Assembly: GCA_017536445.1 (NCBI GenBank)
Contig: JAFXHJ010000002.1
Coordinates: forward strand, 49,467 to 113,466
Length of the DNA stretch: 64,000 nucleotides
Source of the DNA: Clostridia bacterium
GTDB lineage: Bacteria > Bacillota > Clostridia > TANB77 > CAG-465
Reading direction: 5' to 3'
A program made the position numbers and the translations under genes. Positions 5,424-22,616 of the stretch are shown here, in pieces (position 1 is the stretch's first letter; each line of letters starts with the position of its first letter). Under the pieces are notes generated by a model, which ran no database searches, was not told where the DNA came from, and saw only the letters and a program-made list of their open reading frames with translations.

Positions 5424-5652
5424 TAAAAATAAGGAATAGCTTCATAGAAAAATATGAGGCTGTTCCTTTTATGTTTAATTTAATGGATTGGGAGGAAAGT
5501 GATATGAATTTAAAAGATTTATTGCTAAGTAAACAAAACATATTAAGGATAAGTTTGAAAAAAAGTAACAGCATACAACATTTAGTTACTTGTAGAAACG
5601 AACTGGAAACAAGTGAGGAATGTAATCTAGTATATTTATTAGGAGGTTTTCA

Positions 5653-6198
5653 ATGGAAATAATAGAATCTGAAATAAGACAAATTTTTGCATCTGTAGTT
5701 TGGAATCATAAAATACACGAAAAACAATGTGATATTAATAGTAAACACTATAATTTTTTAGAGTTTGTAAGATTGCTTTCATCTGTAATTACGACATCTG
5801 GTCTGTTGACTTGTATATTTATAGATGAATTCTATGTGAAACTAGTAACAACAATAGTTTCAGCAATTTCTATGTTTGTAACTGCATTTTGTAAAACATA
5901 TAATATAAAAGATACGATGCAGGAACATAAAGTTATAGCGTTGGAATTCTTACAACTAAAGAATGAAATAATAAGCATATTATCGGAGATAAAAATAAAA
6001 AGAATAGATGAAGAAAGAGCAATAGAAAAGCGAAATAAAGTATTGGACAAGTATCATACATTGTGTAAAAAAAGTCTAAATACAACTGATAAAGCTGTAA
6101 AACTTGCTAGTAAAGCGCTGAAAGAACAAAGAGACAATACATTTGACGATAAAGAAATAGATAGTTATCTGCCGATAGAGTTAAGAAAGGAGAAATAA
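5653..6198 (+). CDS. 2-TM membrane protein, SLATT-like predicted effector partner of the downstream nucleotidyltransferase
   Basis: RBS aggagg. Two predicted TM helices (LLSSVITTSGLLTCIFI; LVTTIVSAISMFVTAFC) followed by a charged helical tail. Stop TAA abuts the ATG of the next gene (translational coupling). Confidence 0.5.
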   Translation: MEIIESEIRQIFASVVWNHKIHEKQCDINSKHYNFLEFVRLLSSVITTSGLLTCIFIDEFYVKLVTTIVSAISMFVTAFCKTYNIKDTMQEHKVIALEFLQLKNEIISILSEIKIKRIDEERAIEKRNKVLDKYHTLCKKSLNTTDKAVKLASKALKEQRDNTFDDKEIDSYLPIELRKEK

Positions 6199-7476
6199 AT
6201 GTTAGCTAGAGATTTTGAAGAGTTTTGCAGTAATATTAAATTAGACAACAAAGAAGACATGGAATCTACTGTAAAAGATATAACTAAAAAATTAAATAAA
6301 CACTATTATGATTTAGATGATGCAGTTGAACATATGCACACTGTGGGCTCTGTTGGAAGAACAACTGCGATAAAAAATACTAGTGATTTAGATATATTAT
6401 TCGAATTACCACAAAGTGTATACGACAGAATAAATGACAATGAGGGGAATAAGCAATCACAATTGTTGCAAGAAGTAAAAAATGTGTTGAAGGATAGATA
6501 TCCCAACACTGACTTAAGAGGAGATGGACAAGTAGTAGTTATTAATTTTTCTAAATATACGGTAGAATTAGTCCCAGCTTTTAAGAATGATGACGATTCG
6601 TATAAATATCCAGATTCGAATGAAGGAGGAAAGTGGAGAAACACAAATCCGTTGCCAGAAATAGAAAAATGTCTAGAAATAGATGATCAGACAAGTGGAA
6701 ATTTCACGAATATATGCCATATGCTTAGGGCTTGGAAGAATAAAGCGGGATTTAAGTTTAAGGGCTTACTAATAGATACATTGACTAATAACTTTCTTAA
6801 TAATAATGAACAATACAAAAACTGTAATTATGAAGATTATCTAAATTTAATCAAAGATTTGTTTTTGTATTTGAAGAGTCAGAACAAGGAACAAGAATTT
6901 TGGCATGCTATAGGAAGTAATCAAAAAGTCTATGATGATGGAAGGTTTATTAGAAAAGCTGCTAAAACATATGAAGAAATAAAAGATTTAGAAGCGGATA
7001 CTGAAAGAATAAATAAAAAGTTAAGAAAAGTGTTTGGAAGAGAATTTCCCAAAAGAGACGAAGAGGAAACACAAAATAAATATAATTATGATAATACCGA
7101 AGAGTTTATAGAAGATCGTTATCAAATAGATATAATATTGAATGTACAATTAAAGTGTATAGTTACTCAAGATGGTTTTCGACCTACAGATTTAAGGGCG
7201 TTGAAATTTTTGAAGAAAAATAGAAAACTTGAGTTTGAGATAGAAAACAAGTCAGAACTTGTAAAAAATGGAGTGGAACATATTATATGGAAAGTAAAAA
7301 ATGAAGGCGAAATAGCGGAAAAAAGAAATCATATTAGAGGGCAATTGTTAATGACAGACCGTTATAATCGAGAAGAAAACACTAGTTTTGAAGGACCACA
7401 TTATGTAGAAGTATATGTTATAAAGAAAAATATTTGTGTTGGAAAAGGCAGAGTAGATGTAAATATTGCACCTTAA
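6199..7476 (+). CDS. SMODS/CD-NTase-like (cGAS/DncV-like) nucleotidyltransferase with uncharacterised ~130-aa C-terminal domain
   Basis: Pol-beta NTase core motif 'GSVGRTTAIKNTSDLDILFELP' (GS...x10...[DE]xD). Downstream 'VELVPAF' strand and 'W...NP...L.IDDQTSGNFTNICHMLRAWK' helix are typical of CD-NTases. Coupled to the upstream 2-TM gene. Confidence 0.6.
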   Translation: MLARDFEEFCSNIKLDNKEDMESTVKDITKKLNKHYYDLDDAVEHMHTVGSVGRTTAIKNTSDLDILFELPQSVYDRINDNEGNKQSQLLQEVKNVLKDRYPNTDLRGDGQVVVINFSKYTVELVPAFKNDDDSYKYPDSNEGGKWRNTNPLPEIEKCLEIDDQTSGNFTNICHMLRAWKNKAGFKFKGLLIDTLTNNFLNNNEQYKNCNYEDYLNLIKDLFLYLKSQNKEQEFWHAIGSNQKVYDDGRFIRKAAKTYEEIKDLEADTERINKKLRKVFGREFPKRDEEETQNKYNYDNTEEFIEDRYQIDIILNVQLKCIVTQDGFRPTDLRALKFLKKNRKLEFEIENKSELVKNGVEHIIWKVKNEGEIAEKRNHIRGQLLMTDRYNREENTSFEGPHYVEVYVIKKNICVGKGRVDVNIAP

Positions 7477-7484
7477 AGCACCCT

Positions 7485-7512
7485 CCCCACAATACACTTG
7501 TGTATTGTGGGG
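7485..7512 (+). terminator. terminator after nucleotidyltransferase gene
   Basis: Perfect 13-bp stem ccccacaatacac/gtgtattgtgggg with 2-nt loop. Confidence 0.55.
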
Positions 7513-7531
7513 ATAAGCATAGGAGAAACAA

Positions 7532-7891
7532 ATGAATAATGTTAATTTAGAAAGATATATAGAAGCACATAAAAGAGAATATAAACAAGCATTAGAAGAA
7601 ATAAAGAATGGTAAAAAGAAAACACATTGGATGTGGTATATATTTCCGCAAATAGATGGATTAGGAATAAGTAGCACATCTAAATATTATGCAATAAGAA
7701 ATAAAGAAGAAGCAAAAGCATATCTAAATAATGAATATCTATATAATCATTTAATAGAAATATGTAAAGAGTTAATGAAATTAAATACAAACAACATAAT
7801 AGAAGTACTACTTTATCCAGACAATTATAAACTATGTTCATCTATGACATTATTTTATCTAACTAACCCTAAAGAAGAAATCTTTAAGTAA
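7532..7891 (+). CDS. DUF1810 family protein
   Basis: Characteristic 'HWMWYIFPQ' motif and ~120-aa size. RBS aggagaaacaa. Confidence 0.6.
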   Translation: MNNVNLERYIEAHKREYKQALEEIKNGKKKTHWMWYIFPQIDGLGISSTSKYYAIRNKEEAKAYLNNEYLYNHLIEICKELMKLNTNNIIEVLLYPDNYKLCSSMTLFYLTNPKEEIFK

Positions 7892-8155
7892 GTATTAGAT
7901 AAATACTATAATGGTAAATTAGATGAAAAGACTATAGAGATATTAAATAAACAACAAAACAAATAACACATTATTTGTGTATAAAATCCATGCTAATAGT
8001 GTTGGCAAAATAAAATGTATGAGTAAAGAGAGCAGAGATGCTCGCTTTTTATAACATCATAACAAAATACGACAAAAGTCTTCAAAAATTTGGTAATTCA
8101 ATTGAGAAATTATGTGTTTTATGATATAAAATACATAAATAAACGGAGGTTACAA

Positions 8156-9715
8156 ATGAATAATAAAAATATGAAAGAAAGAGAAGAACTACACAAGGCA
8201 ATATGGGCTATTGCAGATGATTTAAGAGGTTCTGTAGATGGATGGGATTTCAAACAATATATACTAGGTATAATGTTTTATAGATATATATCAGAAAATA
8301 TAACAAATTACATAAATGAAGGCGAAAGAAAAGCAGGAGATAAAGATTTTGATTATGCAAAATTATCAGATGCTGAAGCTGAAACAGTAAGAGAAGATTT
8401 GGTAAAGGTAAAAGGCTTCTTTATATTACCTTCAGAACTATTTTGCAATGTATGTAAAAGAGCAAAAAGTGATGAAAACTTAAATGAAACACTAGAAAAC
8501 ATATTTAGCAATATAGAAAATTCTGCAAAAGGAGCAGAGAGCGAAGATGACTTTGCAGGATTATTTGCGGATTTAGATGTAAACAGCAATAAATTAGGTG
8601 CATCTGTACCTAAAAGAAATGCTAAATTAGTGAAGATACTAGAAGGTATAGCAAATATAAAACTGGGTAATTATCAAGACAACTCAATAGATGCATTTGG
8701 AGATGCTTACGAATTCTTAATGGGTATGTATGCATCAAATGCAGGAAAATCTGGTGGAGAATTCTATACACCACAAGAAGTAAGTGAACTATTAACAAAA
8801 CTTGCTGTACTTGGAAAAACACAAGTAAACAAAGTATACGACCCAGCTTGTGGATCTGGTTCATTGCTATTAAAAGCAGCTAAAATACTAGGTAAAGAAA
8901 ATGTAAGAAATGGCTTCTTTGGCCAAGAAATAAACCTAACAACATATAACCTATGTAGAATAAATATGTTCTTACATGATATAGACTATGATAAATTTGA
9001 TATAGCTTGTGAAGACACATTGGTATCACCACAACATTGGGATGATGAACCGTTTGAAGTAATAGTTTCAAATCCACCATACTCAATAAAATGGGCAGGA
9101 GACGATAACACAGTATTAATAAACGACCCTAGATATTCACCAGCAGGAGTACTAGCGCCAAAATCTAAAGCAGACTTTGCATTCATAATGCATTCATTAG
9201 CTTGGCTTGCAACAAATGGAACAGCGTCAATAGTATGTTTCCCGGGAATATTATATAGAGGTGGCGCAGAACAAAAAATTAGAAAATATTTAATAGACAA
9301 TAATTTTGTAGATGCAATTATACAATTACCAGATAATTTATTCTACGGAACATCAATAGCAACTTGTATTATGGTTCTAAAGAAGAACAAAAAAGATAAT
9401 AGCACATTATTCATAGATGCAACTAATGAATGTGTTAAAGTAACAAACAATAATAAACTTACGGACGAAAATATAGATAATATAGTAAATATATTTGCAA
9501 AAAGAGAAGATATAGAATATGTTGCAAAGCTTGTATCAAACAAAGAAATAGAAGAAAATGAATATAACTTATCTGTATCAACATATGTAGAAAAAGAAGA
9601 TACAAGAGAAAAAATAGACATAGTTAAGCTTAATAAAGAAATAGAAGAAATAGTTGCAAGAGAACAAGTACTTCGTGATGAAATAAATAAAATAATAGCA
9701 GAAATAGAGGTGTAA
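8156..9715 (+). CDS. hsdM: type I restriction-modification system, M subunit (N6-adenine DNA methyltransferase)
   Basis: N-terminal HsdM_N region, SAM motif DPACGSGSLLL, catalytic NPPYS motif. Start at ATG 8156 with RBS acggagg; the ORF-track 8090 start lacks an RBS. Confidence 0.92.
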   Translation: MNNKNMKEREELHKAIWAIADDLRGSVDGWDFKQYILGIMFYRYISENITNYINEGERKAGDKDFDYAKLSDAEAETVREDLVKVKGFFILPSELFCNVCKRAKSDENLNETLENIFSNIENSAKGAESEDDFAGLFADLDVNSNKLGASVPKRNAKLVKILEGIANIKLGNYQDNSIDAFGDAYEFLMGMYASNAGKSGGEFYTPQEVSELLTKLAVLGKTQVNKVYDPACGSGSLLLKAAKILGKENVRNGFFGQEINLTTYNLCRINMFLHDIDYDKFDIACEDTLVSPQHWDDEPFEVIVSNPPYSIKWAGDDNTVLINDPRYSPAGVLAPKSKADFAFIMHSLAWLATNGTASIVCFPGILYRGGAEQKIRKYLIDNNFVDAIIQLPDNLFYGTSIATCIMVLKKNKKDNSTLFIDATNECVKVTNNNKLTDENIDNIVNIFAKREDIEYVAKLVSNKEIEENEYNLSVSTYVEKEDTREKIDIVKLNKEIEEIVAREQVLRDEINKIIAEIEV

Positions 9716-10400: not shown

Positions 10401-11673
10401 ATTAGAACAGTTAATTCAAGAATTATGCCCTGATGGTGTGGAATATAAAAAGTTCAATGAAGTGGCAGAATACATTAGAGGAGTGTCATACAACAAATCT
10501 AAGGAAATTAATAATGGGAAAGAAGGTCACAAACTTTTAAGAGCTAATAATATAACATTGTTATCTAATGAATTAAATTATGATGAAGTTAAAATTATTG
10601 ATTTTTCTGTCAACGTAAAACCAAATCAAATGCTATTAAAAAATGATATTTTAATATGTGCAGGAAGTGGAAGCAAAGAGCATATTGGAAAAGTTGCGTT
10701 TATAGAGAAGAATATAAATTACACATTTGGAGGATTTATGGGGGTAATAAGAATAAAACACAATATAATGAATCCAAGATATATGTTTCACATAATGACT
10801 AGTCCTATATTTAAGGCTCATCTTAGTAAGGTATCGAATAGTAGTACCATAAATAATATAAACAATGATACTTGGAAAGAATTCTATTTTCCTGTACCTC
10901 CGTTGGAGGTACAATGTGAAATTGTCCGTATTTTGGACCATTTCACATTACTTACAGCAGAGCTTACAGCAGAGCTTACAGCAGAGCTTACAGCAAGAAA
11001 GAATCAATATGATTATTATATGGATGCGTGTTTTAAGAGTATTAAATCGACGGTAAAGGTAAAGATGTCAGATGTGTTAATTTCATTAAAAACAGGTTTG
11101 AATCCTAGAAAGTTTTTTCAGTTAAACACAGATGATGCACAAGGATACTATGTTACAGTTAGAGAACTAGGAGATAGACAAGTAAAATATTGGCAATCAA
11201 AAGATAAAGTAAATCAAGTTGGCTTAAATAGAATAAATGAACGCTCTAATTTAGAAATTAATGATGTTTTGTTTAGTGGTACTGGAACAATCGGTAGGGT
11301 ATCATTAATTGAAGAGAAACCAAATAATTGGAACGTAAAGGAAGGGGTATACATACTAAAACCAGATACTAAAGTAATAAATCCTGTGTTTTTAATGTAT
11401 TTGATGAAATCAAATTATATGAGAAATATATATTCTAATTATATAGTTGGTTCACCAGTAGCAAGTGTGCCGATGAAAGATTTAAAAGAACTAGAATTTG
11501 ATTTGCCATCAATTGAAGAACAAGAAAAAATAGTAGCGATATTAGATAGATTTGATAAATTATGTAATGACATTTCAGAAGGCTTACCTGCAGAAATAGA
11601 AGCAAGACAAAAACAATATGAATATTATAGAGAGAAGTTATTGTCTTTTAAAGAGGTAAAAAAATATGAATGA
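10393..11673 (+). CDS. hsdS: type I restriction-modification system, S (specificity) subunit with central (TAEL)3 repeat
   Basis: Two TRD-like halves separated by a central conserved region containing LTAELTAELTAELTA. C-terminal conserved helix (DRFDKLCNDISEGLPAEIEARQKQYEYYREKLL). GTG start overlapping the upstream stop. Confidence 0.88.
   Translation: MSKLEQLIQELCPDGVEYKKFNEVAEYIRGVSYNKSKEINNGKEGHKLLRANNITLLSNELNYDEVKIIDFSVNVKPNQMLLKNDILICAGSGSKEHIGKVAFIEKNINYTFGGFMGVIRIKHNIMNPRYMFHIMTSPIFKAHLSKVSNSSTINNINNDTWKEFYFPVPPLEVQCEIVRILDHFTLLTAELTAELTAELTARKNQYDYYMDACFKSIKSTVKVKMSDVLISLKTGLNPRKFFQLNTDDAQGYYVTVRELGDRQVKYWQSKDKVNQVGLNRINERSNLEINDVLFSGTGTIGRVSLIEEKPNNWNVKEGVYILKPDTKVINPVFLMYLMKSNYMRNIYSNYIVGSPVASVPMKDLKELEFDLPSIEEQEKIVAILDRFDKLCNDISEGLPAEIEARQKQYEYYREKLLSFKEVKKYE
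10951..10995 (+). repeat. 12-bp tandem repeat cttacagcagag x3.7 encoding (TAEL)n in hsdS central conserved region
   Basis: Direct reading: three perfect 12-mers plus one partial unit, in frame. Confidence 0.9.
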
Positions 11674-12733
11674 TGTGTATGATACAATAGAAACAGTTGC
11701 TGAAGGAATTAAAACAAATTTAATAAACAAAGAAGATAAAAAATCAATAACATTGTTATATGCTTTTAGTTCTACAGGGAAGACAAGAATATCTAGAATA
11801 TTATCTGATGAAGAAAATAATGATAACATTTGTTTCAATTCTTTCATTACAGACTTATTTGTTTGGGATAATGAAAATTTTGTAATTAATATTCCAAAAG
11901 ATTGCTGGATTGTTAAATTTATAAATGAACAAGGAATTGAAAATCAGATAAAGGATAATTTTAGAGAACTTGTAACTTCAAAAGTAGAGCCAAGGTTTGA
12001 ATTAAATGAAGGCAAAATCAAGTTTGATATACCAACTGGTGATAATAACGTAGAGACAGGAATAAAAATTTCAAAAGGAGAAGAAAGTTTATTTATTTGG
12101 AGTGTATTTTACACAATTTTAACCATTGTAATAGAAGAACTGAATATGAGTAAAGATAACCGAAGTACAGACGTTTTTAATAATTTACAATACGTTATTA
12201 TAGATGATCCGATTTCTTCAATAGATGATTCGAAAATTGTAACTATGGCACTGCAATTAATAGAAGCTATAAACAGTAGTAAAAGCAATTTGAAATTCTT
12301 TATTACAACACATCTGGCGTTATTTTATAATGTAATATACTCTAATTATAGAAAATCAAAAGATTTTAATTCTATTGTTTTAACAAAAAAAGATAATCAA
12401 TTCTATTTAACTAATCAATCAAAAGATACACCGTTTGGTTATCATTTAACTCTTAAACAAGAAATTGAACGAGCAATAGAAAACGATGATATAAGAAAAT
12501 ATCATTATAATTTGTTTAGAAATTTAATCGAAAAGACAAGTAATTTCTTGGGGTATAAAGAGTGGACAAACTGTATTGCTGGAAATCGAAAAACAGAATT
12601 TATAAAGAAAATAAATTTATATAGCCATAGCAGATTAATAGATTGGGAATATAAACAATTACCAGAGGAAGATAAGGAACTATTTAAAGAAGTATATAAT
12701 AGCTTTAAAAAAGAGTATAAATGGGAGGAATAA
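11666..12733 (+). CDS. P-loop ATPase-like protein at the PrrC position of the type I R-M operon (possible anticodon-nuclease/abortive-infection-like)
   Basis: Walker A-like 'AFSSTGKT', Walker B-like 'VIIDDPISSIDD'. Sits between hsdS and hsdR, overlapping hsdS by 8 nt. Anticodon-nuclease identity is not demonstrated. Confidence 0.4.
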   Translation: MNDVYDTIETVAEGIKTNLINKEDKKSITLLYAFSSTGKTRISRILSDEENNDNICFNSFITDLFVWDNENFVINIPKDCWIVKFINEQGIENQIKDNFRELVTSKVEPRFELNEGKIKFDIPTGDNNVETGIKISKGEESLFIWSVFYTILTIVIEELNMSKDNRSTDVFNNLQYVIIDDPISSIDDSKIVTMALQLIEAINSSKSNLKFFITTHLALFYNVIYSNYRKSKDFNSIVLTKKDNQFYLTNQSKDTPFGYHLTLKQEIERAIENDDIRKYHYNLFRNLIEKTSNFLGYKEWTNCIAGNRKTEFIKKINLYSHSRLIDWEYKQLPEEDKELFKEVYNSFKKEYKWEE

Positions 12734-12741
12734 TATTTAAT

Positions 12742-15700
12742 ATGAATAAATATAATGTAGTAATGGAAATGAGTAATTCTACAGTTGCAGCAGAATATGA
12801 ACCCTTAAAGAAGCGCTCTGAGGCATATCAATCTGAAGCCGCTTTAGAGGAAGAATTCATAAGAATGCTTACTGAACAGGGATATGAACGTTTGATGATT
12901 CATAATTCAGAAGCGTTAGTAGATAATTTGCGTAAACAATTAGAATTACTTAATGATTACAAATTTACAGATTCAGAATGGGCTAGATTTTTTAATAATA
13001 ACATTGCTAATAACAATGATGGCATTGTAGAGAAAACTAGAAAAATACAAGAAGATTACATTCAAGTTCTAAAAAGAGATGATGGGACAAGCAAAAATAT
13101 CTATCTATTAGATAAGAAGAATATTCATAACAATAGACTACAAGTTATTAATCAATATGTAGAAAATGAAGGTAATTATAATAATAGATATGATGTAACT
13201 GTTCTTGTTAATGGCCTACCTTTAGTACATATAGAATTAAAAAGAAGAGGAGTTGCTTTAAAGGAAGCGTTTAATCAAATAAACAGATACCAAAGGGATA
13301 GCTTTTGGGCTGGAAGTGGACTATATGAATATGTACAAATATTTGTAATATCTAATGGAACTACTACAAAGTATTATTCTAATACTACCAGAGAAAGTCA
13401 CATTAAAGAAAAAGCAGCTGGCAGAAACAAAAGTAAAAAGACAAGTAATAGTTTTGAGTTTACTTCATATTGGGCTGATGCAAATAACAAAGTAATACCA
13501 GATTTAGTAGACTTTACAAGAACATTCTTTTCCAAACATACATTGTTAAATATATTAACTAAGTATTGTGTGTTTACTTCAGAAGATTTGTTACTTGTAA
13601 TGAGACCTTATCAAATAGTTGCAACAGAAAGAATATTAAATAGAATAGAAGTTGCAAAGAATTACAAAAAAATGGGAACTATAGAAGCTGGTGGATACAT
13701 TTGGCATACAACTGGTTCTGGAAAAACTCTAACATCTTTCAAAACAGCACAGCTTGCAACAAATTTAGAATATATAGACAAAGTATTATTTGTTGTAGAT
13801 AGAAAAGACTTAGACTATCAAACAATGAAAGAATACGACAAGTTTGAAAAAGGCGCTGCTAATGGAAATAGAAGTACTAAAGTATTACAAAGACAATTAG
13901 AAGATAGCACATCTAGAATAATAGTTACAACTATTCAAAAATTAAGTGAATTTGTAAAGAGAAACAAAACTCATCCAGTATATCAAAAACATATGGTATT
14001 AATATTTGATGAATGTCATCGTTCACAATTTGGTGATATGCATAAGATGATAGTAAAAAGCTTTAAGAAATACCATTTGTTTGGGTTTACAGGAACACCT
14101 ATATTTGCTAAAAATGCATTTAACAAATCTAATCCGGACTTCTGTACGACAGAGCAAGCTTTTGGAGATAAACTACATACATATACAATAGTTGATGCTA
14201 TAAATGATGGAAATGTACTTCCATTTAGAATAGACTATGTAAATACAGTAAAATCTAAAGAAGGAATGAAGGATAAGCAAGTAACTGCAATTAATACAGA
14301 AGAAGCATTAGCTTCTCATGAAAGAGTTAGCAAAGTAGTAGAATATATAATTGAACATTTTGACCAAAAGACAAAAAGAAATGCTTTTTATGACTTAAAA
14401 GGACAAAGATTAAATGGATTTAACTCAATATTTGCAGTTAGTTCAATACCAATGGCTAAAAAGTATTATGCAGAGTTTAAGAAACAACTAGAGGAAGCTA
14501 ATAAAGATTTAACCATTGCAACGATATATTCTTTTGCAGCAAACGAAGAAGACAATTTAGATGGAATATTAGACGATGAAGGTTTTGAAACAGAGTTATT
14601 AGATCAAAGTTCTAGAGAATTCCTAGATTTTGCGATTGATGAATACAATAAGAAGTTCAAAACAAATTTCTCATCAGAAGGAAATGGATTCCAAGATTAT
14701 TATAAAGATTTATCTGATAGAGTAAAGAAAAGAGAAATAGATTTACTTATAGTTGTAAATATGTTCTTAACAGGATTTGATGCAACAACATTAAATACAT
14801 TGTGGGTAGATAAGAACTTAAAACAACACGGATTAATACAAGCATTTTCAAGAACTAATAGAATATTAAATTCAGTTAAATCTTATGGAAATATAGTTTG
14901 TTTTAGAGATTTACAAGAACAAACTAATGATGCAATAGCACTATTTGGAGATAAAGATGCAAGTGGTATTGTATTATTAAAATCTTATGAAGATTACTAC
15001 TATGGATACGAGGATGAAAAAGGTAAGAAACAAAAAGGATATGAAGAAAGAATAGCTGAACTTATTCAAAAATATCCTTTGGGTGAACCAATAATAGGTG
15101 AGCAAAACGAAAAAGACTTTATTGTATCTATGGGTAATATTTTAAGATTAAGAAATATATTATCTTCGTTTGACAAGTTTGAAGGAAATGAAATACTTTC
15201 ACCAAGAGATTTACAAGACTATATAGGAACATATACAGACCTATATGAAAAGTATAAACCAGACCCAACAGATAGCGAAAGCATTAAAGATGATATTGTA
15301 TTTGAAATGGAACTTGTAAAACAAGTAGAAGTAAACATAGATTATATTTTAATGCTTGTTGCTAAATATCATAAATCAAATTGTAAAGATAAAGAAATAC
15401 TTGGTTCTATCGATAAAGCTATTAAGTCAAGCTTAGCGTTACGTTCTAAGAAAGAGTTAATAGAATTGTTTATTGAAAGAATAAATACTGTAGCGGATGT
15501 GTTTAAGGATTGGACTAAATTTGTAAAAGAACAAAAAGAAATAGACTTGAAAGCATTAGTTGAAGAAGAAAACTTAAACGAAGATGAAACTAGAAGATTC
15601 TTAAATAATTCATTCAGAGATGGACAAGTTAAAACAACTGGAACAGATATAGAAAAGATATTACCACCAATGAGATGGTTTGGCGGTGGGAATAGAGCAG

Positions 15701-15864
15701 CAAGAAAACAAACTATAATACAAAAAGTGTCTAAGTTCTTTGAAAAATATTTTGGAATAGTAAATGTCGAAGAAGAAAAAGAAGATTTGTATGAAGTGTG
15801 CGAAGATAGCGAACCATATGAGGTGCTTATGGTTGCGGAAGATACGGAAAACGAGTATAAATAA
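12742..15864 (+). CDS. hsdR: type I restriction enzyme R subunit (DEAD/DEAH helicase-nuclease)
   Basis: Helicase motifs HTTGSGKT (Walker A) and FDECHRSQ (DEAH box), ~1040 aa. Start at ATG 12742 with RBS gggagga. Confidence 0.92.
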   Translation: MNKYNVVMEMSNSTVAAEYEPLKKRSEAYQSEAALEEEFIRMLTEQGYERLMIHNSEALVDNLRKQLELLNDYKFTDSEWARFFNNNIANNNDGIVEKTRKIQEDYIQVLKRDDGTSKNIYLLDKKNIHNNRLQVINQYVENEGNYNNRYDVTVLVNGLPLVHIELKRRGVALKEAFNQINRYQRDSFWAGSGLYEYVQIFVISNGTTTKYYSNTTRESHIKEKAAGRNKSKKTSNSFEFTSYWADANNKVIPDLVDFTRTFFSKHTLLNILTKYCVFTSEDLLLVMRPYQIVATERILNRIEVAKNYKKMGTIEAGGYIWHTTGSGKTLTSFKTAQLATNLEYIDKVLFVVDRKDLDYQTMKEYDKFEKGAANGNRSTKVLQRQLEDSTSRIIVTTIQKLSEFVKRNKTHPVYQKHMVLIFDECHRSQFGDMHKMIVKSFKKYHLFGFTGTPIFAKNAFNKSNPDFCTTEQAFGDKLHTYTIVDAINDGNVLPFRIDYVNTVKSKEGMKDKQVTAINTEEALASHERVSKVVEYIIEHFDQKTKRNAFYDLKGQRLNGFNSIFAVSSIPMAKKYYAEFKKQLEEANKDLTIATIYSFAANEEDNLDGILDDEGFETELLDQSSREFLDFAIDEYNKKFKTNFSSEGNGFQDYYKDLSDRVKKREIDLLIVVNMFLTGFDATTLNTLWVDKNLKQHGLIQAFSRTNRILNSVKSYGNIVCFRDLQEQTNDAIALFGDKDASGIVLLKSYEDYYYGYEDEKGKKQKGYEERIAELIQKYPLGEPIIGEQNEKDFIVSMGNILRLRNILSSFDKFEGNEILSPRDLQDYIGTYTDLYEKYKPDPTDSESIKDDIVFEMELVKQVEVNIDYILMLVAKYHKSNCKDKEILGSIDKAIKSSLALRSKKELIELFIERINTVADVFKDWTKFVKEQKEIDLKALVEEENLNEDETRRFLNNSFRDGQVKTTGTDIEKILPPMRWFGGGNRAARKQTIIQKVSKFFEKYFGIVNVEEEKEDLYEVCEDSEPYEVLMVAEDTENEYK

Positions 15865-20698: not shown

Positions 20699-20731
20699 AT
20701 AGCGAGAGATATTAATCTCTCGCTATTTTTA
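20699..20731 (+). terminator. terminator after yjzC-like gene
   Basis: atagcgagagat-atta-atctctcgctat stem followed by TTTTT. Confidence 0.65.
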
Positions 20732-20814
20732 TGTATTTTACTTGACAACGATTAAATGGCATGTTAAAATAATATTGCCATCAAAAAGAGGCAATAAACG
20801 AAGGATGTGGCAAA

Positions 20815-21177
20815 TTGGATACAATAGGTAAATATATAAGAGGTCAAAACCTATTAAGGATAAAACGCATAGTAGATGCGGATATAAACGGAGATAAATT
20901 TATTATACGAAGGAGAAAAAAGAATGTAGAGTTTATGAGAGAATATTCTTTAACAGATGAAGATGTTAAGAATATAGTAAGATCCCTTACTGTTAAAGAC
21001 TGTTTTAAAGGACCAGAGAAAGATAGAGATGAAGAATATGAGGGTTTTCTCTTTTTCTTTTGTCCGATGTTTGAAGGAATAAAATTATATATTAAGATTA
21101 GAATAGAAAGTGATGAGAAGTCGGTTTGTTTATCAGTGCATGAATTTGGTAAATATGATGAGGTGGGAGAAGTATGA
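20815..21177 (+). CDS. MqsR-family toxin (predicted mRNA interferase)
   Basis: Aligns by eye with E. coli MqsR along its length (LTVKDCFKGPE vs LSESDFYKSM; KLYIKIRIESDE...SVHEF vs QVYLKITVIHDVLIVSFKE). TTG start with RBS aaggatg. 4-nt overlap with the next gene. Confidence 0.6.
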   Translation: MDTIGKYIRGQNLLRIKRIVDADINGDKFIIRRRKKNVEFMREYSLTDEDVKNIVRSLTVKDCFKGPEKDRDEEYEGFLFFFCPMFEGIKLYIKIRIESDEKSVCLSVHEFGKYDEVGEV

Positions 21178-22187
21178 AAGTGTATTGTCCATATTGTAGA
21201 GAAGAAAAAGAATATATTATTGAAACAAGAGAAGTAAAAGAATTTAGAGGAAAAGAAATAGATACATATGAAAACGTAGCGATGTGTAAAACATGTAAGA
21301 ACGATTTGTATGTAAATGAATTAGAAACTGAAAATAGTAAAAGAATATATGAAGCATATAGACAAACTGAAAATATCATAAAACCACAAGATATAATAGA
21401 TTTGAGAAGCAAATATGATATATCACAAAGAGAATTAACTGCTATACTAGGATTTGGCAAAATGACAATAAATAGATACGAAAGAGGAGGAGTACCAACT
21501 AAATCTCAAAGTGATTATATTAAACTTTTAATAGAAAATGAATCTAAATTTATTGAGAAAGTAAAAGAAGCGTATAGTAAAAATAATATAACTAAAAAAA
21601 CATATGAAAAGATAATGTCTAAAGAAAATTATGAAGAATGTAATACTAATAATTTGCAAAATTTAATAAGAAAATGTATAACAAACAATCTATCTAGAAC
21701 GCCAGATATATATAATGGTTATAAGCTATTAGATTTAGATAAATTAGAAAATATTATTTCGTATATAGCAAGTCAAGTTAAAAATTTAACTGTTACAAGC
21801 ATTAATAAATATTTATGGTATATAGATATGTTATCTTTTAAAGAACAATGTGTTGCTGTAACAGGCCTAACATATGAGCATGAAAAGTTTGGCCCTACAA
21901 TAGATGGGAAAAACTATAATACGTTAATGATTCTAAACAACAAGTATGTTAAAGAAGAAACTGAAAATGATTATGGCACAACAACACAAATAGTAAGTAA
22001 AAAGAATTATGATCTTAATTGCTTATCTGATGATGAACTTGAAATTATAAACAAAGTAATTAAATTATTAAAAAACAAAAAAGTAACTGACATATCTGCA
22101 ATGTCCCATTTAGAAGATGGATGGAAAAAGACGAAAAGATATGAAAAGATTTCGTTTGAGTACGCAATGAATTTAAGCATAGATTAA
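21174..22187 (+). CDS. MqsA-like antitoxin (Zn-ribbon + XRE HTH) fused to C-terminal Panacea (DUF4065)-like domain
   Basis: N-terminal CPYC...CKTC zinc ribbon. HTH 'ISQRELTAILGFGKMTINRYERGGVPTKSQSDYIKLL' parallels MqsA 'LSQKEASEIFGGGVNAFSRYEKG...STIKLL'. C-terminal ~200 aa carries a DUF4065-like pattern (INKYLWYIDMLSF...GLTYEHEKFGPT). Confidence 0.6.
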   Translation: MKVYCPYCREEKEYIIETREVKEFRGKEIDTYENVAMCKTCKNDLYVNELETENSKRIYEAYRQTENIIKPQDIIDLRSKYDISQRELTAILGFGKMTINRYERGGVPTKSQSDYIKLLIENESKFIEKVKEAYSKNNITKKTYEKIMSKENYEECNTNNLQNLIRKCITNNLSRTPDIYNGYKLLDLDKLENIISYIASQVKNLTVTSINKYLWYIDMLSFKEQCVAVTGLTYEHEKFGPTIDGKNYNTLMILNNKYVKEETENDYGTTTQIVSKKNYDLNCLSDDELEIINKVIKLLKNKKVTDISAMSHLEDGWKKTKRYEKISFEYAMNLSID

Positions 22188-22575: not shown

Positions 22576-22586
22576 TAAAAACACAA

Positions 22587-22616
22587 ACACCCAAGAATTA
22601 ATCTTGGGTGTTTTGT
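22587..22616. terminator. bidirectional terminator between convergent genes
   Basis: acacccaaga/tcttgggtgt stem flanked by A-run and T-run. Confidence 0.6.

Follow-up and report, generated by a model that had tools for sequence, protein, structure and literature searches.

The locus described here raises the question of what a C-terminal Panacea domain contributes to an antitoxin that already possesses an MqsA-type zinc ribbon and a helix-turn-helix (HTH). It lies in a stretch of 64,000 nucleotides (hereafter, the window) of contig JAFXHJ010000002.1, from the genome of an uncultured gut Clostridia bacterium (GenBank assembly GCA_017536445.1), and consists of two open reading frames (ORFs) on the forward strand, the toxin gene upstream, which share a 4-nt ATGA overlap. 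A preliminary description, made by inspection of the DNA, had placed both ORFs and their overlap correctly, and had ascribed them to an MqsR-like toxin and an MqsA-like antitoxin with an additional Panacea (DUF4065)-like domain. We find that the locus is a real two-gene toxin–antitoxin (TA) module, with an MqsR toxin and an MqsA–Panacea antitoxin, and consider it probable that the module is a type II TA operon of the MqsR:PanA class in a defence island. It is an ordinary further example of this class, the architecture of which has already been annotated, catalogued, and dissected experimentally.

Identity of the Toxin

The link between the 120-aa upstream protein and MqsR required a comparison of folds, as a search of Protein Data Bank (PDB) sequences with the single toxin sequence found no MqsR. 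Direct alignment to E. coli MqsR using hhalign gave an E-value of only 0.0037 (the reference sequence used is identical to 3HI2 chain B). A Foldseek search of the PDB using the AlphaFold2 (AF2) model of the toxin (pLDDT 83) placed 3HI2_D and 3HI2_B at the top (probability 1.0; target-normalised TM score 0.75–0.77), with a root-mean-square deviation of 2.4–2.7 Å over 95 columns; these were the sole PDB matches below an E-value of 1e-3, and HigB2 was the next fold match. Based on this model, the protein has the MqsR fold, which upholds the MqsR-like character that the preliminary description had assigned to it, and it is likely a divergent member of the MqsR family. A few close homologues of the toxin bear a precomputed PF15723 (MqsR_toxin) label, and an identical protein in NCBI nr is named “type II toxin-antitoxin system MqsR family toxin.”

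In an alignment of the toxin, distant plasmid homologues, and E. coli MqsR, three positions are invariant: Y92 (equivalent to Y81, the catalytic tyrosine in E. coli), K94 (K83), and S107 (S94). The toxin is predicted to have RNase activity. In MqsR of B. fungorum, substitution of the toxin tyrosine Y97 leads to detoxification (PMC10440598).

Domain Architecture and Conservation of the Antitoxin

The 337-aa downstream protein matches PF15731 (MqsA_antitoxin) over residues 5–119 (41.1 bits; cut-off 30) and NCBIfam TIGR03830 (type II TA system antitoxin MqsA family protein) over residues 5–129 (83.5 bits; cut-off 61.8). A phmmer search of PDB sequences retrieved E. coli MqsA (3GN5; E 2.8e-5), with the match running from the first CxxC through to the end of the HTH, and the same structure was the best PDB fold match (E 2.7e-6) of the AF2 model, in which residues 1–150 are confident (pLDDT >90). 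The zinc-ligand cysteines C5, C8, C38, and C41 are invariant across 30 homologues. The MqsA-type zinc ribbon and XRE-type HTH named in the preliminary description were thereby confirmed, and so was the C-terminal Panacea/DUF4065 domain: PF13274 (SocA_Panacea) scores 60.9 bits (cut-off 25.7; E 2.6e-16) over residues 211–318, which covers profile positions 2–113 of 113.

The HTH is the most conserved segment of the antitoxin (mean majority frequency 0.90, with 39 of 63 positions invariant) and the linker, residues 126–182, is the least conserved (0.71). The Panacea domain is conserved as much as the zinc-binding domain (ZBD), with a mean majority frequency of 0.83 and 62 of its 155 positions invariant; we count this equal constraint in favour of an MqsR:PanA-type module. 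By analogy with characterised relatives, the ZBD (residues 1–62) would be the toxin-neutralising part and the Panacea domain an accessory with a proposed sensor role, with the HTH predicted to serve for dimerisation and operator binding.

Relationship to Known Systems

DUF4065 was flagged as an alternative MqsR antitoxin as early as 2013 (PMC8832971), and in the survey of Kurata et al. (2022) MqsR-like proteins were the commonest recognisable toxin partner of Panacea antitoxins (PanAs; n = 90), with 343 PanAs carrying N-terminal HTH domains (PMC8832971). Ernits et al. (2023, PNAS) validated two pairs, one from B. fungorum and the other from L. rossiae, each combining MqsR with a “Panacea; ZBD (MqsA); HTH” antitoxin (PMC10440598). 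In B. fungorum, the ZBD or the ZBD–HTH (residues 1–174) neutralises MqsR, whereas the Panacea domain (residues 175–349) or the HTH–Panacea portion does not, and a sensor role was proposed for the Panacea domain (PMC10440598). The suggestion in the preliminary description that the antitoxin holds two neutralisation domains is therefore contradicted for the closest tested system, B. fungorum MqsR:PanA. A search of the literature after 2023 for the cue sensed by Panacea domains found nothing relevant.

The B. fungorum MqsR(D2):PanA pair (WP_099686063.1 and WP_099686064.1) and the MqsR:PanA pair of Lactobacillus rossiae share with the pair in the window the ZBD(MqsA)–HTH–Panacea order and an MqsR-type partner. 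The antitoxins also agree in size (349 aa for the B. fungorum PanA, 337 aa here) and in domain boundary (1–174/175–349 and ~1–182/183–337, respectively). The sequences are distant: using a B. cereus-group plasmid homologue as a proxy for both the B. fungorum and L. rossiae sequences, identity is ~25% over residues 1–284, and the toxin has 120 aa here vs. 143–154 aa in the B. cereus relative. The clade described here also differs in belonging to uncultured gut Clostridia and in possessing its own putative operator sequence.

With the E. coli MqsR/MqsA system (3HI2, 3GN5, 3O9X) the module shares the toxin gene in first position, a zinc ribbon N-terminal to an XRE HTH, the MqsR fold, equivalents of Y81 and K83, and an inverted repeat in its own promoter. 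It differs in overall identity (~20%) and in the exchange of MqsA N97 for Met and of MqsR K96 and Q68 for His and Leu, respectively. The canonical MqsA length of ~130 aa cited in the preliminary description agrees with the PDB chains (131–133 aa), and the antitoxin in the window has ~200 additional C-terminal residues that form the linker and the Panacea domain.

Two further systems share the Panacea domain with the module. In the single-domain PanA systems (Kurata et al., 2022; Ernits et al., 2023), such as B. choladocola PanT(D11):PanA, a small membrane protein is likewise encoded beside a Panacea antitoxin, but there the antitoxin consists solely of the Panacea domain, which neutralises the only toxin, the membrane protein; the module in the window has a dedicated ZBD and an MqsR toxin, and its membrane gene (see section “Alternative Roles of the Panacea Domain”) is optional and separable. 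Caulobacter SocAB, a type VI TA system, has an antitoxin with the PF13274 domain, whereas the partner toxin here is MqsR-like and not a replication inhibitor of the SocB kind, and the PanAs tested by Kurata et al. bind their toxins directly (PMC8832971).

Distribution and Loss of the Toxin Gene

The preliminary description regarded the antitoxin architecture as unusual, a view that does not hold, because the fusion is common in databases and already present in the literature. At E≤1e-3 the antitoxin matches 1,487 database clusters; the best 120 of these are all 337–349 aa in length and all have both PF13274 and PF15731. The ZBD–HTH–Panacea fusion was found in 53 species-level genomes (one genome was scanned per species), all of them from uncultured gut Clostridia (human, rabbit, and ruminant samples). 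Full-length homologues with 40% identity are encoded on plasmids of Clostridium estertheticum and C. tagluense, and homologues with 25% identity on B. cereus-group megaplasmids. In NCBI nr, an identical antitoxin is named “DUF4065 domain-containing protein [Clostridia bacterium],” and PADLOC has no model for either the toxin or the antitoxin.

The toxin gene is directly 5' of the antitoxin gene in ~48 of the 53 species-level loci, and the toxin–antitoxin pair is the only constant unit across these loci, with variable flanks. The toxin ORF has been lost in four of them (L020, L025, L047, and L054). L025 (680–810) and L054 (600–720) have clean deletions of the toxin in which the promoter and operator stay in place, with the first and last toxin codons retained in L025; L047 (3860–4010) has a degenerate toxin remnant and also keeps the promoter and operator; and in L020 (3300–4010) a transposase fragment replaces the toxin. 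L020, L025, and L047 retain an antitoxin of full length, and are natural “orphan antitoxin” variants, whereas L054 has only antitoxin fragments. A true TA pair, with a toxin that does damage once its partner is absent, would be expected to decay in this order, losing the toxin first.

Some loci depart from this pattern in other ways. On the C. estertheticum plasmid pCF008-B (L081:2492–4013) the order is reversed, with the antitoxin gene followed by a 112-aa MqsR-like toxin, annotated merely as a hypothetical protein, and then an N6 DNA methylase. One genome carries two diverged copies of the pair ~6.5 kb apart in a single defence island (L029 and L039; contig CAKOXT010000001.1). In a long-read assembly (L087:2917–3911), gene calling divides the antitoxin between an MqsA ORF (146 aa) and a Panacea ORF (168 aa); the division would reflect an indel introduced by sequencing or a fusion that has come apart naturally.

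As a discovery the locus carries little weight, given that the architecture was noted in 2013, catalogued in 2022, and dissected in 2023, and that NCBI names both proteins. The minor points that are new are the operator-like repeat, the defence-island setting, the toxin-deletion variants, and an often-linked membrane gene. The gut Clostridia clade constitutes a large and well-sampled natural series of 53 species, including toxin-deletion variants and loci with and without the membrane gene, that could be of use in asking what role the Panacea domain has where another part of the antitoxin neutralises the toxin.

Promoter Region and Putative Operator

Upstream regions were compared over the 140 nt 5' of the toxin gene in 47 diverged loci with unrelated further flanks. 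The promoter layout TTGAC(T/A)-17-TA(A/C)AAT is conserved across these loci, as is the order of the elements: promoter, 4–5 nt, TGCCA-TCAAAAAG-TGGCA, ribosome-binding site (RBS), and a third TGGCA before the start codon. In most related loci the latter elements form the conserved string AGGAGA-TGGCA-TAT(A)ATG. An exact TGCCA-N8-TGGCA occurs once per locus, at the promoter position only, in 36 of the 53 related loci, and shuffles of the same 410 kb contained none; with both arm variants included, the repeat reads TGCCATCAAAAAG(T/A)GGCA. A search of Rfam gave nothing near threshold in the leader or the spacers.

We read this repeat as the putative operator of the dimeric antitoxin HTH, because MqsA represses its own promoter via a palindrome. 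The E. coli MqsA operator is a palindrome of the ACCT-N-AGGT type, compared with TGCCA-N8-TGGCA here, and this conserved repeat offers a directly testable candidate. The coordinates of the promoter elements, genes, and domains are given in Table 1. The hairpin that lies between the small membrane gene and the convergent methyltransferase gene was called on the reverse strand; if it works in the forward direction, it is likely the 3' end of the operon in the window.

Table 1. Positions of the module, its regulatory elements, and its defence-related neighbours, counted from the first nucleotide of the window.
Feature	Position	Strand	Details
PrrC anticodon nuclease	11666-12733	+	317 bits
Type I HsdR	12742-15864	+	1190 bits
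PD-T7-3, 433 aa	17045-18346	+	PADLOC model, full length, 405 bits
PycTM-like (Pycsar transmembrane effector) membrane protein, 187 aa	19394-19957	+	weak match, 26 bits
Terminator hairpin of upstream 64-aa gene	20699-20726	+	perfect 12-bp inverted repeat, then T-run; 5' boundary of module
Sigma-70-type promoter, TTGACA-17 nt-TAAAAT, TG extended -10	20742-20770	+	11/12 consensus matches
Operator-like inverted repeat, TGCCA-TCAAAAAG-AGGCA	20776-20793	+	directly downstream of -10 hexamer
Toxin RBS, GAAGGA	20800-20805	+	
Third TGGCA half-site	20808-20812	+	between RBS and TTG start; pairs with TTGCCA at 20775-20780
MqsR-like toxin gene	20815-21177	+	TTG start, 120 aa; RelE-superfamily RNase fold (predicted)
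ZBD–HTH–Panacea antitoxin gene	21174-22187	+	ATG start, 337 aa
ZBD, MqsA-type, CPYC...CKTC	21174-21359	+	residues 1-62; TIGR03830, PF15731, fold 3GN5
XRE-type HTH	21360-21548	+	residues 63-125; aligned to MqsA residues 68-119
Helical linker	21549-21719	+	residues 126-182; helices in AF2 model to ~150, then low confidence
Panacea (DUF4065/SocA-like) domain	21720-22187	+	residues 183-337 and stop codon; PF13274
Small membrane protein gene c2, 118 aa	22219-22575	+	~30 soluble residues, then 3 transmembrane-like segments; own RBS, 31 nt past antitoxin stop
Terminator hairpin	22585-22613	called on -	12-bp stem, 5 GC pairs; between c2 and convergent methyltransferase gene

Evidence Weighed Against the Assignment

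A number of observations weigh against the assignment of this locus to the MqsR:PanA class. For the toxin, PF15723 scores 22.1 bits (E 2e-4), which is below the Pfam gathering score of 26.2, and a profile of 33 sequences of the toxin family retrieved no MqsR from PDB sequences. Three of the four active-site positions of E. coli MqsR (K56, Q68, Y81, and K96) are not kept family-wide: K96 is His109 in Firmicute versions; K56 corresponds to K65 in the window copy and to Ala/Ser in most relatives; and Q68 is replaced by Leu/Ile (Leu in the window toxin). For the antitoxin, AF2 modelled the Panacea portion with low confidence (shallow alignment), and the identity of this domain is therefore taken from the Pfam score and sequence conservation. 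In the promoter region, the repeat in the window is the one-mismatch variant TGCCATCAAAAAGAGGCA, with a degenerate second arm (AGGCA), and the HTH has Met at the position of MqsA N97. Brown et al. are said to have described in 2011 the role of N97 and R101 in E. coli MqsA, where N97 reportedly contacts bases; conservation of R101 in the antitoxin HTH together with the exchange of N97 for Met fits a different recognition sequence. The homologues that have been tested are distant (the B. cereus-group relative is ~25% identical), and the toxicity of the toxin from the H. frisingense MqsR:PanA pair was not relieved by the cognate PanA in E. coli (PMC8832971).

Proposed Mechanism

In the mechanism that we propose for the module, a single promoter (TTGACA-17-TAAAAT) would transcribe the toxin gene first and then the antitoxin gene, with translation of the latter coupled via the ATGA overlap. 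The 120-aa toxin, as an MqsR-fold endoribonuclease of the RelE superfamily, would halt growth by cutting RNA, and the N-terminal zinc ribbon of the antitoxin would bind and silence it. The antitoxin would dimerise via its XRE HTH and repress its own promoter at the TGCCA-N8-TGGCA repeat just 3' of the -10 element. The Panacea domain would be a non-neutralising accessory; its most likely function is that of a sensor or stability switch, which would free the toxin on a cue such as phage infection.

Alternative Roles of the Panacea Domain

The preliminary description had suggested that the antitoxin may neutralise a second, unlinked toxin, which is not supported. In the alternative that survives best, an extension of this idea, the Panacea domain would also neutralise, with another toxin as its target, either an unlinked one or, as the best candidate, the product of the small membrane gene c2 that follows the antitoxin gene in the window (a three-gene, two-effector system). 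We consider this unlikely. The c2 protein has no match in Pfam or PADLOC; its family has conserved motifs (MCGIFY...LGSIGYMFF) and a soluble N-terminus of ~30 aa that is also conserved, ahead of the three transmembrane-like segments. In B. choladocola, PanT, a small transmembrane toxin that depolarises membranes, is neutralised directly by Panacea, which binds a soluble N-terminal segment ahead of the transmembrane region (PMC10440598). Consistent with linkage, a c2 homologue occupies the slot directly 3' of the antitoxin in 17 of the 53 genome loci, and an unrelated membrane family (c11) occupies the same slot in four further loci; in a metagenome scan centred on c2, the antitoxin gene immediately precedes c2 in 20 of 24 informative loci, whereas type II CBASS (a cyclic oligonucleotide-based antiphage signalling system) follows in only 5–6 of 25. 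In one locus (L089) the trio stands alone between housekeeping genes, and the antitoxin is kept intact after loss of the toxin, which also speaks for a second partner.

Against this, about half of the loci are without a c2- or c11-type gene, and c2 is found apart from the pair in L061, L063, L067, L080, and L092/L093. The c2 family is very small and restricted to its lineage (126 database clusters, all from gut Clostridia and nearly always in defence islands), whereas the fusion is widespread and includes Bacillus plasmids without c2. As a candidate toxin neutralised by Panacea, c2 was rejected on two grounds: it is separable from the pair, and the test for co-variation was negative, with Panacea domains beside c2, beside c11, or beside neither showing equal similarity relative to that of the ZBD–HTH.

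The spacer between the antitoxin gene and the membrane gene bears on the same question from both sides. In most loci a conserved AT-rich hairpin (AGCAAAATATTTTAG...CTA.ATATTTTGCT) followed by a T-run, which is terminator-like, separates the antitoxin gene from c2 or c11. It lies ~10–60 nt past the antitoxin stop and precedes these unrelated families alike (loci L004, L005, L009, L013, L014, L019, L022, L024, L027, L028, L033, L036, L037, L040–L042, and L055); possible explanations are a leaky terminator and a recombination boundary of the module. The window, L043, and L045 lack the hairpin, and there, as in L089, likewise free of the hairpin, the spacer is only 12–41 nt (41 nt in L089). The interval in the window contains no terminator, and c2 could possibly be the third, co-transcribed gene of the operon there, its membership being uncertain.

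A functional link between Panacea and c2 thus appears decidedly improbable, and it is quite unlikely that the module of this lineage is a three-gene operon (mqsR – mqsA::panacea – c2) in which Panacea restrains a second, membrane-acting effector. If that were true, a single antitoxin would guard two different modes of killing within a defence island, one by an RNase and the other by a membrane protein. As matters stand, c2 is an uncharacterised defence-island element, often found 3' of the antitoxin, and its candidacy as a linked second effector is weak.

The same c2-centred counts (CBASS downstream in 5–6 of 25 loci, antitoxin upstream in 20 of 24) led us to reject c2 as the missing transmembrane effector of a downstream type II CBASS, as a general explanation; the window has no CBASS. 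In five genome loci (L033, L036, L055, L024, and L028; ~5500–8600) a type II CBASS starts right after c2, with the cyclase, E1/E2, and JAB proteins confirmed by PADLOC; the stretch examined shows no further effector gene, and c2 could double as the transmembrane effector there.

Returning to the MqsR:PanA reading, with Panacea as a non-neutralising accessory, a different objection is that the pair is merely a selfish addiction cassette in a variable island, with no host-level function, and with the Panacea domain kept for antitoxin stability or turnover. This is very unlikely in our assessment, although the GC content of the pair is lower than that of the window (26% vs. 31%), the flanks are variable, homologues are plasmid-borne, and the toxin has been repeatedly lost. 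The module is found consistently among defence genes and every domain is under purifying selection across the 53 species, both of which argue for a host-level function while remaining compatible with selfishness.

A SocA-like (type VI) mechanism, suggested by the membership of Panacea in the SocA/Panacea family PF13274 and by the description of SocA as a proteolysis-promoting antitoxin (PMC8832971), is extremely unlikely, given that the PanAs tested neutralise without a need for ClpXP or Lon and form stable PanA:PanT complexes that can be pulled down (PMC8832971), that the B. fungorum ZBD alone neutralises MqsR (PMC10440598), and that the partner toxin here is MqsR-like, with no SocB-like toxin present.

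Genomic Setting

The module shares a defence island with the genes for PrrC, type I HsdR, and PD-T7-3 (Table 1), a setting that we count in favour of its assignment. The flanks of the related loci encode AbiLi-like ATPases, SLFN-type helicases, HsdR, Mrr, GmrSD, type II CBASS, DUF6414 with AAA proteins, and AAA_13 proteins. In the source organism the module would be expected to have an anti-phage function. Within the window, none of the genes called up to ~10 kb from the PycTM-like gene, in either direction, encodes a cyclase. The gene for PrrC is directly 5' of that for HsdR, which is the classic arrangement of a prr locus, here in a Clostridia metagenome-assembled genome.

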